NCBI GenBank assembly: GCA_964016885.1
Contig: OZ024741.1
Coordinates: forward strand, 36,332,001-36,396,000
Reading direction: 5' to 3'
DNA: 64,000 nucleotides
Source: Eledone cirrhosa
Lineage: Eukaryota
Position numbers and translations under genes: made by a program. The notes beneath the pieces were generated by a model, which saw only the letters and a list, made by a program, of their open reading frames with translations, did not search any database and was not told where the DNA came from. This document shows positions 11,336 to 38,034 of this stretch, piece by piece. Every line of letters starts with the position of its first letter. Position 1 is the first letter of the stretch.

Positions 11336-12523
11336 CAAAACAGCAAACTAAAAGCAGCACACTGAAAACAGCACATTGAAAACAGCAAACTAAAACCAGC
11401 ATGATAAAAACAGCACATTAAAAACAGCAAAATAAAAGCAACACATTAAAAATAGCAAACTAAAAGCAACACACCAAAAACAGAAAACTAAAAGCAACAC
11501 ATTAAAAACAGCAAACTAAAAGCAACACACCAAAAACAGCAAACTAAAAGCAACACAGCAAAAATAGCAAACTAAAAACAGCACATTAAAACAGCAAACT
11601 AAAAACAGCAAACTAAAAACAACACATTAAAAACAGCTCATTAAAAACAGCAAACTAAAAGCAGCACACTGAAAACAGCACATTGAAAACAGTAGAGTGA
11701 AAGCAACATACCGAAAACAGCACATTGAAAACAGCAAACTAAAACCAGCATGATAAAAACAGCAAAATAAAAGCAACACATTAAAAATAGCAAACTAAAA
11801 GCAACACACCAAAAACAGAAAGCTAAAAGCAACACATTAAAAACAGCAAACTAAAAGCAACACACCAAAAACAACAAACTAAAAGCAACACACCAAAAAT
11901 AGCAAACTAAAAACAGCACATTAAAAACAGCAAACTAAAAACAGCACATTAAAAACAGCTCATTAAAAACAGCAAACTAAAAGCAGCACACTGAAAACAG
12001 CACATTGAAAACAGTAGAGTGAAAGCAACATACCGAAAACAGCAAACTAAAACCAGCATGATAAAAACAGCACATTAAAAACAGCAAAATAAAAGCAACA
12101 CATTAAAAATAGCAAACTAAAAGCAACACACCAAAAACAGAAAACTAAAAGCAACACATTAAAAACAGCAAACTAAAAGCAACACACCAAAAACAGCAAA
12201 CTAAAAGCAACACACCAAAAAAAAAAAACTAAAAACAGCACATTAAAAACAGCAAACTAAAAACAGCACACCGAAAACAGCACATTAAAAACAGCTCATT
12301 AAAAACAGCAAACTAAAAGCAGCACACTGAAAACAGCACATTGAAAACAGTAGAGTGAAAGCAACATACCGAAAACAGCACATTGAAAACAGCAAACTAA
12401 AACCAGCATGATAAAAACAGCACATTAAAAACAGCAAAATAAAAGCAACACATTAAAAATAGCAAACTAAAAGCAACACACCAAAAAAAACCAGAAAACT
12501 GAAAGCAACACATTAAAAACAGC
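11336..12523. repeat. AAAACAGC/AAAAGCAACAC minisatellite, left part
   Basis: Tandem array with higher-order blocks; the same array resumes at 37828-38036 and 39984-40480. Confidence 0.92.
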
Positions 12524-14196
12524 GGCACTACAACGCTATTAGCTGTCAGTCCAAGCAGCCGATGGAAACAGGCGAAGGTGACGTCACTCGTCAAACATCG
12601 TTTATTTCCGTATTACTACCACGCGTAAGTGGAGTTTTCACGCGTTTTTTGGAGAGAGGGGGGGGGGGGGGGGTGAAAGGGGAAGACTTAAAAGGGCCAA
12701 ATTAGAAAACAAGTCATGGTTATAAAGCATATCGATGTAAGTGGAGTTACTTAAATGAAAATATAGGTGGCCCTTAAAAGGGCCAAATTAGAAAACAAAT
12801 TTAAGTTAATTAGAAAACAAGTCATGGTTATCAAATAAATTTGATTTATTCATTTATATTTTCATTATTCACCAACCTTATTCAAAAGCATGTTTAGAAA
12901 CATTTTGTTCACTAACCTTATTCAAATGCATGGAATCAGATGACGGATATGTTCTAATAACTTTTGGAAAATTTCTCCACATGAATTTAATGAGATGGTT
13001 TTGAAGCAAATTTCTGGCTGTCCTGTTTTCCCTTTTATTCCTATTTTTTTACGTGTTTCCACAAGCATTCTATGTGATTCGTTGTGGCAAATGTTACTGG
13101 ATCAACAAAATTGATCGAATGGTTCACCGTCAAATGTTGATAGCCTAGCTGATCGGTCGTATTATAGGAACGTCATAGATCAGATATTATGGTTGTCCCT
13201 GGCAATATACGATCCTGTATAATGGTTAAAAGTGTCTCTGCTGTCCTGTCTTCTACTGCTACTAAAATACATCTTCTGGTACTTCTTTCCAAAGCACCAA
13301 AAACCCACTGTGTTTTCACAGAATGGCCACGATGGTATTTCCTTCTCACGAATGCGCTTTCATCAATCTCGACAATTCGGTTTGGCCCGCCAAGCTTAAT
13401 GTTTTGTGCCACATAGTACTCTGCACATACATCACGGCAAAAATTTCGCCAATCTGCTACGGCCACATTTGCGATACGACATTCCTCTGAAATCTTCTTG
13501 GCTAAATCTTCTTTTGCCCCAAAATATAATATATCAACTATTTGTTCACACTTCAAATTGCTATTTTCTAAAAATGTGCCTTTTCTAATAGAAACCTGTT
13601 TTCTACATGGTCTTTTACATGACCAGATAATCCCATCTGACACATTTTGTTTCGCTACTTCCAACATACATTGACCACATGAAGGGCAGACCTTTTGTGT
13701 ATTTAGAAGTCCTTGAATTTTCAACCAATTGACGGTATCTGCTGTAGTAGCGGTAGCGATGGTTAATTCCCTTAACACTTGGATATATTATAGAACTCAT
13801 TTTTCAACTTGCAGATGCGTGTATTATCACAAAGTGAAGATTAAAGTTTATTTATTTACACGTGGTGTTGGTGGTGATTGTTGCTGATTGGTGGGGATTG
13901 TCTCCATGGGGACTGTCGCTTGTCTCCATGGGGACTGTCGCTTGTCTCCATGGGCACTGTATCCATGCTTTTGAATAAGGTTGGTGAAAATAATTTGTTT
14001 TCTAAACATTTCTTCATAAATAATTTGATAACCATAATTTGGCCCTTTTAAGGGCCACCTATATTTTCATTTAAGTTAACTCCACTGTTGGTGAAAATGA
14101 CTTGTTTTTTATATTGATAACCATAACTATGAAAATATGTGACGTCATTCGTCAACCTTCCCCTACTTTCACTTCTGACAGCTAATACCATGAACT
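12524..14196 (-). mobile_element. Merlin DNA transposon core unit (~1.7 kb)
   Basis: GG-initiated left end; right end shares TATTAGCTGTCAG in inverted orientation; subterminal inverted repeats at ~12741-12790 and ~14035-14086; transposase inside. Confidence 0.8.
12940..13800 (-). pseudogene. Merlin / ISXO2-like (IS1595-family) DDE transposase, disrupted
   Basis: N-terminal CPSC..WSC..C zinc ribbon, then VEIDES, WVFG and IISD. A TGA at 13173-13175 sits where W is expected; reading continues RSY..GYQHLTVNHSINFVDP..TTNHIECLW, with a frameshift in an A-run near 13045. Confidence 0.9.
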
Positions 14197-14275
14197 GTAA
14201 AAATAAAAGTTCATGGTATTAGCTGTCAGAAGTGAAAGTAGGGGAAGGTTGATGAATGACGTCACATATTTTCAT
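14129..14275. repeat. 68-bp-arm hairpin of two back-to-back Merlin right ends
   Basis: 14129-14196 is the reverse complement of 14208-14275 with one mismatch; 11-nt loop. Confidence 0.9.
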
Positions 14276-15281
14276 GTGTGTATGTGCAAATTTCAATAAT
14301 ATTAAGACACCCTAATGGGGGTTAAACGCCCTATAGTGAAAAGTTTGGCCAATAAATGGAACAAGATTTTACGAACTCCTCCTATGGTTTTGGAGATAGA
14401 CCACCCCATAACCATATATATTCTGAAACTACATTGCCCAGGGTACTTGTATAAGTATATTTCATTTTAATCAAAGGGTTCATCGGGGGCACAAAACCGC
14501 CGCTGAAACTTTACCTTCGATTTATATGAAATTTAAACCATAGGTAAATGACAAGATATGATGCCTATTCACAAAATTTCAGCATATTTCAATAAAATTA
14601 AAATACCCTAATGGGGGTTAAACCCCTATTAGGGTTCACCGGTGGCACAAACCCCTGCTGAAAATGTTTTCCCTTCCATTTATATGCAATTTAAACCATA
14701 GGTAAACGACAAGATATGATGCCTATTCACATCATTTCAGCAAATTTCAATAAAATTACAATACCCTAATGGGGGTTAAACCCCCTATTAGGGTTCACCA
14801 GGGGGCACAAAATCCCCGCTGAAAATGTTTTCTGTTCGATTTATATGCAATTTAAACCATAGATAAAGGAAGAGATATGATGCCTATTCACAAAATTTCA
14901 ATACTATAAGACACCTTAATGGTGGTTAAACCCCCTATTAGGGTTCCCTGGGGTACAAACCCCCACTGAAAACTTTTCCCTTTCGATTTATATGAAACTT
15001 AAACCATAGGTAAATGACAAGATATGATGCCTATTCACAAAAGTTTTTAATTGATATTTTGAAAAAAATTATTTACAAGAAACAAAATAAGAATAAGATT
15101 TAATAATGCAATTTTGATTTGATATATTACAAAAAATGATGTTTTCCAATTTTACATGCAATATATTTTACATTGAGTAATATTGAATTTTTCTCCATAA
15201 ATTATATCACTGATTTAAAATCAATCATTTTCTTACAAAAAAAATGTGTGAAACGCAGCAAGGCGCTGGTAATTCGGCTAG
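14276..15281 (+). mobile_element. non-autonomous Helitron-like element with internal ~155-bp tandem repeats
   Basis: 3' end GCAGCAAGGCGCTGG (hairpin) followed by CTAG then T at 15255-15282. Units marked by AAACCATAG(G/A)TAAA at ~14536, 14693, 14855 and 15001. No 5' TC end identified. Confidence 0.55.
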
Positions 15282-15324
15282 TATATATATATATGTGAGC
15301 GTGTGTATATATATATATGTGTGT

Positions 15325-36446: not shown

Positions 36447-36501
36447 AAATATTAAAAAAATAATGAATAAAACAGTTCCTTATATTAAACAAAAAAAGTT
36501 C

Positions 36502-36650
36502 ATTATTTAACGATCGTTTCTAGGATATATATGTGTTAGAATTGGCATGCATATTCAACAGATCTATGTACAAAATTATACAAAATTATACAAACTATCA
36601 AAATTAAATATACATACCAAACACATATATATGCCGTCTTCAGAAATAAT
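36502..36650 (-). ncRNA. type I hammerhead ribozyme with very long stem II
   Basis: auuauuu CUGAAGA cGGcAUAUAUAUGUGUU ... AACACAUAUAUAUCCua GAAA CGAUCG UU aaauaau: 7-bp stem I and palindromic stem III. Confidence 0.7.
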
Positions 36651-37647
36651 ATATATATATATATAAACTACTTGACGAGGAGCATTCTAGTTGTTCAATA
36701 AACTGATTGAATAATACAAACGATGTTTTAATATACAGATTCATTATTTGTGTATATATAATATATACAAAGCATATAAATAAATTTACAGTAGAATAAC
36801 ATAGCAAATATGTTTTAAATATATACATAAATAACATTACAAATGCTTAAATAACATTATAAATTGCTCGCGATTCTTTCAGAAGGATATATTCCTTTAA
36901 TGTTGCAATATTAAAGAAAATATACGTATATATATATACATATATTTATTCAACTAAGGAAAGCTGGTTGATTGAAAATCTGCCGACTTTCATAAGAGAT
37001 GACAAACACTCAACAGTTTATGTTTATCCGGAGTTTTATTATAATAATTGTTTCTACTGTGGCACAAGGCCAGCAATTACTCAGTGTATTACTGGTACTT
37101 ACAATGTAAATTTTCAAATGTATTACAGAGCCGATATACAAAGTATAAAACAATAAAATCTTAGTTTAATACAATTGCTGATCATTTTTTTTTTACATAC
37201 ATATATATATATATATATAGATACATACATATATATGCATTGTCGAGGCTTCCAAACGACTTAAAGATATTTACTTATTCTTCCACAATGCTTCAAGCAA
37301 ACTTCAATACTCTCTTATATATATATATATATATACAATATATATTAATAAATGGAAACTATATTTATAAAACCATATTTATTTTATATATATTTTAAGG
37401 GCCACCGCTTTCATCAGATAAAATACATATATATACATACATACACACATATATATATGTATGTATGAAACTTAATTATTCGGGTAATGCGACTCCTGTA
37501 ACGTTTTTAATAATTATTTGATATTACTTACCTTCTTATCTTTTGCTTTTATTGTTTTATTTTTCTCCTGTGTTTGTTGACATTTGCGTTTATTCCCTGG
37601 AGAAAAATGGCGCCAAACTTTTCCCTTTGAAAGAATAATGTGATAGT

Positions 37648-37827
37648 GTTCACGTGATATATAGCTGTCAGTCGTGAAAGCAGGCGAAGGTGTCGTCATT
37701 CGTCATCGTTTATTTCCGTATTACTACCACCAAGTAACTCAACTTACGCGTTGTAGTAATACGGAAATAAACGATGTTTTGCTTTCATCGGCTGCTTTCG
37801 ACTGACAGCTAATAGCGTTGTAGTGCC
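37648..37827. mobile_element. Merlin-derived MITE-like foldback forming the right end of the 25-kb unit
   Basis: TAGCTGTCAGTC...CATCGTTTATTTCCGTATTACTAC is followed by its inverse, ending in the 28-bp TIR; homologous to 12524-12635. Confidence 0.8.
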
Positions 37828-38034
37828 AAAACAGCAAACTAAAAACAGCAAACTAAAAGCAACACACCAAAAACAGCAAACTAAAAGTAACACACCAAAA
37901 ACAGCAAACTAAAAGCAACACACCAAAAACAGCAAACTAAAAGTAACACACCAAAAACAGCAAACTAAAAGCAACACACCAAAAACAGCAAATTAAAAGC
38001 AACACACCAAAAATAGGAAACTAAAAGCAACACA

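Follow-up and report, generated by a model that had tools for sequence, protein, structure and literature searches.

How did 25 kb of transposon-bounded DNA come to lie inside a single minisatellite in Eledone cirrhosa, and did it travel there as one unit? The first-pass annotation of the window (the whole 64,000-nucleotide stretch of DNA analysed) proposed that two inverted Merlin modules had moved the interior by their outer ends. We conclude, with a probability of roughly 80%, that the segment belongs, as one of many copies, to a dispersed family of Merlin elements 17-48 kb in length, likely built as composites from small Merlins. The features that define its ends are as follows.

11337..12523, no strand: minisatellite of 14/28-bp units, left block (the target), used in the register test
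12516..12523, + strand: 8-bp target-site duplication (TSD), left copy
12524..12551, + strand: left TIR (L type), 28 bp, same sequence as the right TIR
37800..37827, - strand: right TIR (R type)
37828..37835, + strand: 8-bp TSD, right copy
37828..38034, no strand: minisatellite, right block

The identical inverted termini that had been claimed are an exact 28-bp match starting GG at both 12524 and 37827, which gives an element of 25,304 bp (C2:36344524-36369827), and AAAACAGC stands directly outside both ends (12516-12523 and 37828-37835). The annotation read this motif as a TSD but cautioned that it was weak evidence, being the satellite's own; the left block does contain it 40 times, and left/right pairs drawn at random agree in 1.3% of cases. 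The register of the array answers that caution and bears out the claim that the satellite stops at 12523 and resumes in phase at 37828. Motif phase modulo 14 is unchanged across the join once one 8-bp copy is dropped and is off by 8 when both are retained, and cutting the left array at each of 1171 points never gave an 8-bp direct repeat without a duplication. We infer that this copy inserted in the satellite and has decayed since. A tRNA scan of the window returned none, and Rfam at the gathering threshold returned nothing in 12000-38500 beyond two histone stem-loops. A left-junction pattern matched the window alone, because it included a private base.

Other large TIR pairs with homologous interiors but different flanks and TSDs, for which the annotation had suggested searching the genome, were found at 17-48 kb. 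Each of 32 elements, 17.2-48.2 kb long (median 28.8), is flanked by an 8-9-bp duplication of its own: 27 exact at 8 bp, one exact at 9 bp and four with one mismatch, one of the exact ones sitting in an AT microsatellite. They comprise nine of 13 inward pairs above 10 kb, three more, and 20 pre-selected pairs; no matching TSD was found in four of the 13, or in five of the 37 inward pairs of a wider listing read by eye. Left flanks are distinct in all 20 pre-selected pairs, and the interiors of the eight other L-R copies align collinearly over 14.2-22.7 kb of the window's element. In each of 10 blocks the mean pairwise p-distance falls within 0.023-0.043, and the trees are star-like; an age of a few million years at most is probable for the family, which gives no sign of present activity. 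The 32 verified copies together make up 0.99 Mb, and exact junction counts suggest about 100 copies or more. Family members at C3:252.5 and 252.9 Mb are segmental duplicates with common TSDs (listing-based, as are the flanks at C4:219.4 Mb and C4:75.3 Mb), and an 84-kb nested unit (C3:42007076-42091183) has matching 8-bp flanks (partly listing-based). Its 1082-bp spacer was considered as proof of joint movement, which is unsupported, as the spacer resembles family interior. Tipped K-type ends on C18 and C27 were rejected as a second giant family: they are ~620-bp MITEs in 19 of 20 stretches, with recurring flanks, and therefore parts of local duplications.

The two modules that carry the ends are derived from smaller Merlins.

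12524..14196, - strand: left module, a Merlin with a transposase and no TIR tip at its inner end
12922..13800, - strand: Merlin transposase remnant, with defects scored against the 302-aa ORF of sister copy L116 (7907-8815)
14129..14275, no strand: palindrome: two 68-bp K-type TIR arms, both tipless, around an 11-bp spacer
37658..37827, no strand: right module, a ~170-bp derivative of the small R-S Merlin family

The left end had been described as a 1.7-kb transposase-bearing Merlin unit. A match to PF12762 (DDE_Tnp_IS1595) agrees with that identification (E 6.7e-08 in the remnant, on the minus strand of the left module, and E 6.7e-19 in the intact sister ORF), but the unit is incomplete, with its inner TIR tip absent and its transposase broken. 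Relative to L116, the remnant has 14-bp and 17-bp deletions, a 1-bp insertion and a premature stop, and the window transposase is dead. An ORF of 300-302 aa is preserved in three of 20 copies. The sister ORF contains D151, D212 and E249, which, going by the Merlin motif blocks, are the presumed DDE catalytic triad. The best protein matches are Octopus proteins (73-85% identity); transposase pN/pS is ~0.3-0.4 against eight more distant relatives, and pN is at least equal to pS among the giant copies. The sister ORF also matches the zinc-ribbon domain PF12760 weakly and under the cut-off (E 0.061), a domain that IS1595 proteins have at the N-terminus and that described Merlins are said to lack (PMC8101967). 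The left module is 81-86% like smaller Merlins of the same genome, and two such relatives are free 2.2-2.4-kb elements with TSDs. The right edge of the palindrome lies at a TG/TA microsatellite, which is the joining point of the left arm in an older subfamily.

The right end, previously read as a ~180-bp Merlin MITE, is indeed an R-S Merlin derivative, though again not a complete one: its outer R end is intact and its inner S end (37662-37732) lacks the tip. The loss amounts to the first 8 bases of the inner TIR in the left unit and about 15 bases in the right MITE. Contigs of two other organisms each gave, against 37240-37840, one 34-bp piece of under 90% identity and nothing usable.

How the modules became joined to the interior is best seen in sister copies. 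Among 19 stretches, every palindrome arm and inner S end found is tipless; of the K motif's occurrences, 50 have a tip, 39 (27 loci) lack it and one is of another form. The right junction is tipless in 21 rows, empty or otherwise arranged in 19 and intact-tipped in one, and empty-site copies (such as L301 and L027) continue straight through the intact-tip insertion point. In the older subfamily, the left side consists of a 390-bp two-tipped MITE plus ~5.5 kb, joined to the same cargo at 14275. One copy retains an inner R end as well as an outer R' end, the TSD lying on the latter. The same cargo occurs in L-R, C-R and C-R' copies, TSDs of its own marking each of these end types, and free relatives of the modules (2.2-2.4 kb and 0.7-1.2 kb) have 8-bp TSDs. 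Sister copies likely retain earlier states: the empty site, the intact-tip insertion, and the older left and right ends. The intact-inner-tip locus is a single one (C1:195784231), which breaks off after ~0.6 kb and is more diverged; an insertion made independently, ~50 bp away from the junction, might also account for it. Likewise, the source of the left inner end might be an internal repeat or a foldback dimer instead of a clipped TIR, because the same short motif lies inside small elements. Divergence does not resolve the order of subfamilies, LINE-free copies being less diverged than LINE-bearing ones (0.010 vs 0.027, in a top-scoring and hence biased sample).

Between the modules lies the cargo.

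14290..15283, + strand: ~150-bp hairpin repeats ending CTAGT
15486..17448, no strand: RTE fragment and SINE-like pieces, with inverted arms at 16331-16514 and 17265-17448
17636..21800, no strand: tandem repeats, 351-bp and ~200/900-bp
22072..25955, no strand: low-complexity arrays, 6/12/24-bp
26346..26927, - strand: exon-like acidic units
26928..27965, - strand: nested 5'-truncated LINE with a 12-bp TSD (26916-26927 / 27954-27965)
30520..31593, no strand: nested element with ~400-bp inverted arms
31659..36030, + strand: near full-length RTE-type LINE (endonuclease, RT, PHD)

The hairpin repeats are presumably Helitron-like, and SINE-like is likewise our assumed label. The RTE-type LINE, which has one stop (33909-33911), lies at the same place in sister copies, and the 5'-truncated LINE is present at 16 of 30 loci, absent at 12 and unclassified at two. 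Element ORFs of at least 120 aa are the transposase, LINE pieces and antisense frames, and low-complexity frames; no intact non-TE ORF was found in the element (Pfam on five of its single-frame ORFs). We considered whether the cargo holds an intact host gene and rejected it: array ORFs (22-26 kb) are fragmented in 19 copies, with none above 308 aa in 22072..25955, and a stop in the acidic frame of one exon-like unit is common to 21 of 21 copies. On sequence grounds, nested LINEs and repeats make up the cargo, and it contains no intact host gene. A minus-strand segment beside the right module (37650-37531) is promoter-like and a candidate cargo promoter. No donor locus for the cargo was found among 40 candidates scored, and a search of sequencing runs with 26340-27000 gave no RNA dataset among the matches listed. 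The annotation's picture of a single element was right about the composite build and missed a family of ~100 copies, the lost inner tips and the lack of an intact host gene.

Two element-derived modules flank passenger DNA, and TSD scars at many loci indicate that the whole unit moves by its outer ends. Complete, independently mobile modules are absent (inner tips are missing in the window subfamily), as is a host-useful passenger gene. Functionally the element resembles a composite, but in a locked, derived form, because the inner tips are absent while free module relatives and the two-tipped older MITE exist.

On the favoured reading, small Merlins likely landed in a large element that was already there; their inner TIR tips were lost, and their outer ends took over as its termini. 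The Merlin DDE transposase would pair the two outer ends and cut and paste the whole unit. Loss of the inner tips would block solo exit of the small modules, leaving the large unit to move. A non-autonomous giant would have become autonomous when it received the left module with its transposase. Nested LINEs and repeats may then have inflated the interior, and exchange between copies may have made it mosaic. It is established that TIR transposons multiply when they excise as the DNA is replicated or afterwards and the gap is repaired, and the giants would gain copies in this way. We lean slightly towards a more specific scheme, a self-propagating lineage of IS-style composites that grows by a ratchet: each new Merlin would insert in or next to the giant, lose its inner tip and supply the new outer end, one such step having made the giant autonomous. 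Under this scheme a 300-aa transposase would routinely have moved 20-50 kb, perhaps an 84-kb unit, with LINEs and a gene-like fragment carried along as DNA.

Nested insertion was also the annotation's own alternative. In its strict form, successive nested insertions and tandem expansion would have enlarged one simple Merlin to 25-48 kb; internal TIR-like motifs would be its subterminal repeats or passive later insertions, and no ends would have been recruited. The interior is largely nested LINEs and repeats, the 12-bp-TSD LINE has an empty-site form, TIR-like motifs lie inside small elements, and tandem repeats are common in Merlins, zebrafish ones reaching at least 10.3 and 13.7 kb (PMC8101967 S1 table). 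Insertion of this kind did contribute and is compatible with a composite route. As a full account it is unlikely: the exchange of end types around one cargo speaks against it, and it is largely refuted already for the right end, where other copies have nothing at the module's site and reach their true end beyond it. The internal TIR-derived ends of the copies examined and the sister subfamilies support movement by two inverted modules.

It is less probable still that ectopic recombination or gene conversion, acting between copies and small Merlins nearby, was the main source of the end combinations and that transposition did no more than propagate them. All four pairings of left-end type with LINE presence or absence do occur (W, L with LINE; F and e, L without; U, C with LINE; M, V and X, C without), and the palindrome spacer is found in both orientations, yet the insertion-then-tip-loss series at the right junction is left unexplained, and recombination is better seen as a later modifier. 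Two unrelated small Merlins in the satellite, or an assembly join or segmental duplication, for which the satellite origin of AAAACAGC and the C3 duplicates might speak, are refuted as a general explanation by the register test, the 20 distinct left flanks and raw reads of another sample that cross the tipless right junction at ~105-119 depth (from another copy).

These elements belong within Merlin but stand apart from its described members. Merlins have 24-462-bp TIRs starting 5'-GG, an 8- or 9-bp TSD and DDE_Tnp_IS1595 (Feschotte 2004, via the accessible part of PMC8101967). The giants have GG TIRs, 8-9-bp TSDs and this domain, the superfamily also includes octopod ISXO2-like proteins and zebrafish Merlin-1_DR and Merlin-2_DR, and they share internal tandem repeats with known Merlins. 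They differ in composite build, tipless inner ends, exchangeable termini and size: reaching 48 kb, they are 2-3 times as large as the largest Repbase Merlin that can be sized from repeat coordinates (at least 13.7 kb). They are a giant, composite-type variant of Merlin. The words composite and nested are absent from the main text of PMC8101967, and no giant or composite Merlin was found in open-access literature text.

Among bacterial elements, Tn5 and Tn10 are composite transposons. Like these, the giants have two inverted element-derived modules, use the outer ends and carry the transposase in one module; unlike them, the modules are dissimilar (1.7 kb and 170 bp), the inner tips are deleted and there is no intact passenger gene. 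Maize Ac/Ds macrotransposons were reportedly the subject of Huang and Dooner in 2008, going by the title. In these and in Composite Insertions, the ends of separate elements mobilise the DNA between them, with 8-bp TSDs for Ac (available text of PMC4270019), and Drosophila Ising is a TE between foldback elements (available text of PMC6431247). As described there, these are single alleles or lineages, whereas the giants, in a different superfamily, have spread as families with tens of copies. KolobokP, a DDE transposon of eukaryotes with a composite-like build, occurs in molluscs and other phyla, and the portion of PMC9587614 available, whose background also defines the bacterial composite transposon, gives it direct terminal repeats of ~450/660 bp, TTAA targets (a superfamily trait) and an internal transposase plus His-Me nuclease. 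None of these was seen in the giants, which have inverted ends, an 8-bp TSD and an IS1595-type transposase. Teratorn, Polintons and the enlarged Chondrus CACTA are of similar or larger size class, and in the accessible text of PMC6431247 and PMC10175614, which does not mention Merlin, they are large through coding modules, whereas the giants are large through non-coding passenger DNA; no viral or polymerase module of the Teratorn or Polinton kind was found among element ORFs of at least 120 aa.

Eukaryotic cut-and-paste transposons are thought to be size-limited, with efficiency falling above ~6 kb of cargo (PMC6431247, in part). The dozens of TSD-flanked 17-48-kb copies suggest that a small DDE transposase has repeatedly moved such non-coding cargo in an animal germ line, and the intact sister ORFs are candidates for a high-capacity transposase. 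Likely construction intermediates survive in one genome, making the birth of composites in animals testable. LINE copies and repeats can also spread as DNA passengers, which would mislead repeat dating and annotation. The absence of an intact host gene limits the biological consequence.

The left module also contains two stem-loops.

12745..12789, - strand: histone-3'-UTR-like stem-loop (RF00032, Rfam)
14036..14081, + strand: second histone-like stem-loop, an inverted copy (Rfam)

Their scores are 34 and 37 bits, where the gathering score is 34. No report of a histone stem-loop in such a transposon was found in open-access literature. Histone mRNA 3' ends are marked for RNA processing by a stem-loop with an A-rich 5' flank and a downstream purine-rich element. 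Here, judged by eye, the 5' flank is AATTT and the purine-rich element is absent downstream. The first stem-loop lies ~135-180 bp downstream of the transposase stop and is a subterminal motif in all local Merlins examined.

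The identical 28-bp termini starting with GG at positions 12524 and 37827, with AAAACAGC immediately outside both, were observed again in the window sequence (G000:C2:36332001-36396000). The first-pass annotation had cautioned that this octamer is the surrounding satellite's own motif and hence weak evidence of a target site duplication (TSD), a caveat that was overcome by a register test: the 14-bp satellite register is kept if one octamer copy is removed and broken if both stay, and such an 8-bp repeat arises without duplication at none of the array's 1171 cut points. The target duplication is genuine. 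The same satellite is split a second time by an RTE-type LINE (38069-39984), with the array back at 39985-40505.

The 3.0-Gb host genome was queried with the left 1.8 kb, the right 1.4 kb and end-specific patterns, and many loci contained both ends facing each other. Among inward pairs longer than 10 kb in the first locus set, 8-bp flanks match in 9 of 13 (seven exactly, one of these in an AT run, and two with one mismatch), all nine having the same left and right end types as the window element, variants allowed. Three further TSD pairs belong to a second subfamily, sister elements with the same cargo and another left end. Exact 27-bp TIR tips number 299 genome-wide; the 200 in the matches listed include 37 primary inward pairs spaced 10-100 kb apart, and in 32 of these the flanks match, by eye, within one base. 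In 20 pairs picked because their flanks matched and then checked by script, TSDs were exact over 8 bp (17), exact over 9 bp (one) or carried one mismatch (two), and all 20 left flanks were distinct. With the TIR-pair search suggested in the first-pass annotation, the script-checked set comes to 32 elements, ranging from 17,218 to 48,177 bp (median 28.8 kb). A 9-bp TSD also occurs on a 7.5-kb deletion derivative. Judged from these sequences, the window element is very probably real and mobile as a unit (probability about 0.95).

We infer a family of about 100 or more copies, since exact matching of junction patterns yields 37 right junctions that are tipless (inner TIR lacking its outermost bases), 75 second-subfamily left junctions and 27 loci where the left arm is tipless. 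The four largest contigs (C1-C4, 54% of bases) hold 31/37 right junctions and 50/75 second-subfamily junctions (binomial p 1e-4 and 0.02, for copies that are not independent).

The cargo lies between the end modules of the window element (12524-14196 and 37658-37827).

Features of the cargo
Near full-length RTE LINE
26928-27965, truncated LINE with 12-bp TSD (of 30 loci, 16 carry it, 12 lack it and 2 are unclassified)
Inverted-repeat element
Tandem arrays
Gene-like traces, minus strand

Other pieces may be Helitron-like and SINE-like. No intact ORF was found in the gene-like minus-strand cargo. A promoter- and first-exon-like segment adjoins the right module (37531-37650, minus strand), presumably with E-box-like, YY1-like and donor motifs, and its middle differs between copies far more than other parts of the element do. 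Elsewhere in the window, an ORF of 520 aa (55257-56819, minus strand) has no Pfam match and presumably resembles a Penelope-type RT/GIY-YIG fragment.

By alignment, 12 fully or largely fetched regions are collinear with 13.0-22.7 kb of the 25.3-kb window element (14.2-22.7 kb in the eight other TSD-flanked copies), and twelve more regions carry the same cargo. Picked elements with 10-kb end stretches contain the second subfamily's left interior in 10/10 cases and the window's core in 8/10; ten with 2-kb end stretches were compared for subterminal homology only. Mean pairwise p-distance is 0.023-0.043 over ten blocks from the transposase to the right end, and block trees are star-like, as would be expected if the parts had co-amplified in a burst. 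At substitution rates typical of animals, the family may be at most a few million years old. Divergence is 0.010 among LINE-free and 0.027 among LINE-bearing copies, a biased sample of top hits that does not order the subfamilies. Raw reads from another sample bearing the same species label cross the right junction, and derive from another copy rather than the window insertion.

The left module is 81-86% like smaller Merlins, and two smaller relatives are free elements (2184 and 2380 bp) with 8-bp TSDs. A palindrome at 14129-14275 consists of the module's inner end and a mirror copy; its arms lack the first eight TIR bases, and the same TIR type occurs with its tip 50 times elsewhere. The palindrome spacer (14197-14207 in the window, and in sister copies) is found in both orientations, suggesting flips between the arms. 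Foldback elements of 2.8-3.3 kb, made of two left modules centred on this palindrome, include three with 8-bp TSDs (at most one mismatch).

Foldback elements (left modules in inverted pairs) flanked by an 8-bp TSD each
G000:C1:45539941-45542990
C4:282846971-282849807
C28:102762753-102766033

The right module is derived from a free non-autonomous family of 0.7-1.2 kb, and its inner TIR is short by about 15 bases. Among the loci compared, the right junction is tipless in 21 entries plus two mutated ones classed as 'other', and empty in most of 19 'empty/other' entries, one listed twice. The tip is intact at a single, truncated locus (n=1), where the insertion-point sequence runs on in empty copies. 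The second subfamily's left part comprises a 390-bp MITE with both tips and about 5.5 kb of debris, LINE sequence included, and meets the shared cargo at a microsatellite at 14275. The empty and intact-tip states and this left end are likely intermediates, and the element probably arose as a composite that recruited new ends.

With L and R denoting the window element's outer ends and C and R' those of sister copies, C-R', C-R and L-R combinations each have their own TSDs, and one copy retains R internally, its TSD adjoining an R' end further out. All four combinations of left-end type and LINE presence were seen, implying exchange between copies. At G000:C2:233617875 and C1:125545423, an L end is fused head-to-head to a C end with overlapping tips.

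The window's transposase ORF (13800-12922, minus strand) is disrupted by two deletions, one insertion and a premature stop. In 3/20 left modules the frame stays open from ATG to stop (300-302 aa, with PF12762), and the closest named relatives of the transposase are Octopus proteins. Among giant copies, all compared to one copy and hence not independent, pN (0.020) is not lower than pS (0.014), and pN/pS is about 0.3-0.4 against eight more distant relatives, a pattern that would fit a functional master followed by neutral decay. A histone-3'-UTR-like stem-loop occurs at 12745-12789 (minus) and 14036-14081 (plus); it is subterminal in every local Merlin examined, in sense orientation shortly past the transposase stop, without the customary A-rich flank and downstream element.

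The window element agrees with Merlin in all core features tested. Repeat coordinates in part of one supplementary table place zebrafish Repbase Merlins at at least 10.3 and at least 13.7 kb (PMC8101967), so large Merlins were already known, but smaller; other supplements might list larger copies. Composite mobilisation via the ends of separate elements is known, from parts of the respective papers, in maize (PMC4270019) and Drosophila (PMC6431247), the latter part making no mention of Merlin. Searches of the open-access literature found no giant or composite Merlin.

One inward pair spanning 84 kb (G000:C3:42007076-42091183), flanked on both sides by the same 8 bp, contains nested family copies and may have moved whole or been enlarged after insertion. 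An R end at G000:C2:160784391 and a C end at C2:160948416 lie on the same strand 164 kb apart with complementary 8-bp flanks, as if one element had been split by inversion. Two giants 488 bp apart (G000:C3:252540750-252611323) recur as a pair 367 kb away (252907432-252987203) with the same TSDs, the product of a short-range transposition and a later segmental duplication. Finally, a Merlin MITE of about 620 bp with recurring flanks is amplified inside local duplications (G000:C18:4.9-12.6 Mb, C27 and C370), and C2H2 zinc-finger motifs are present in 2/20 stretches of this cluster.
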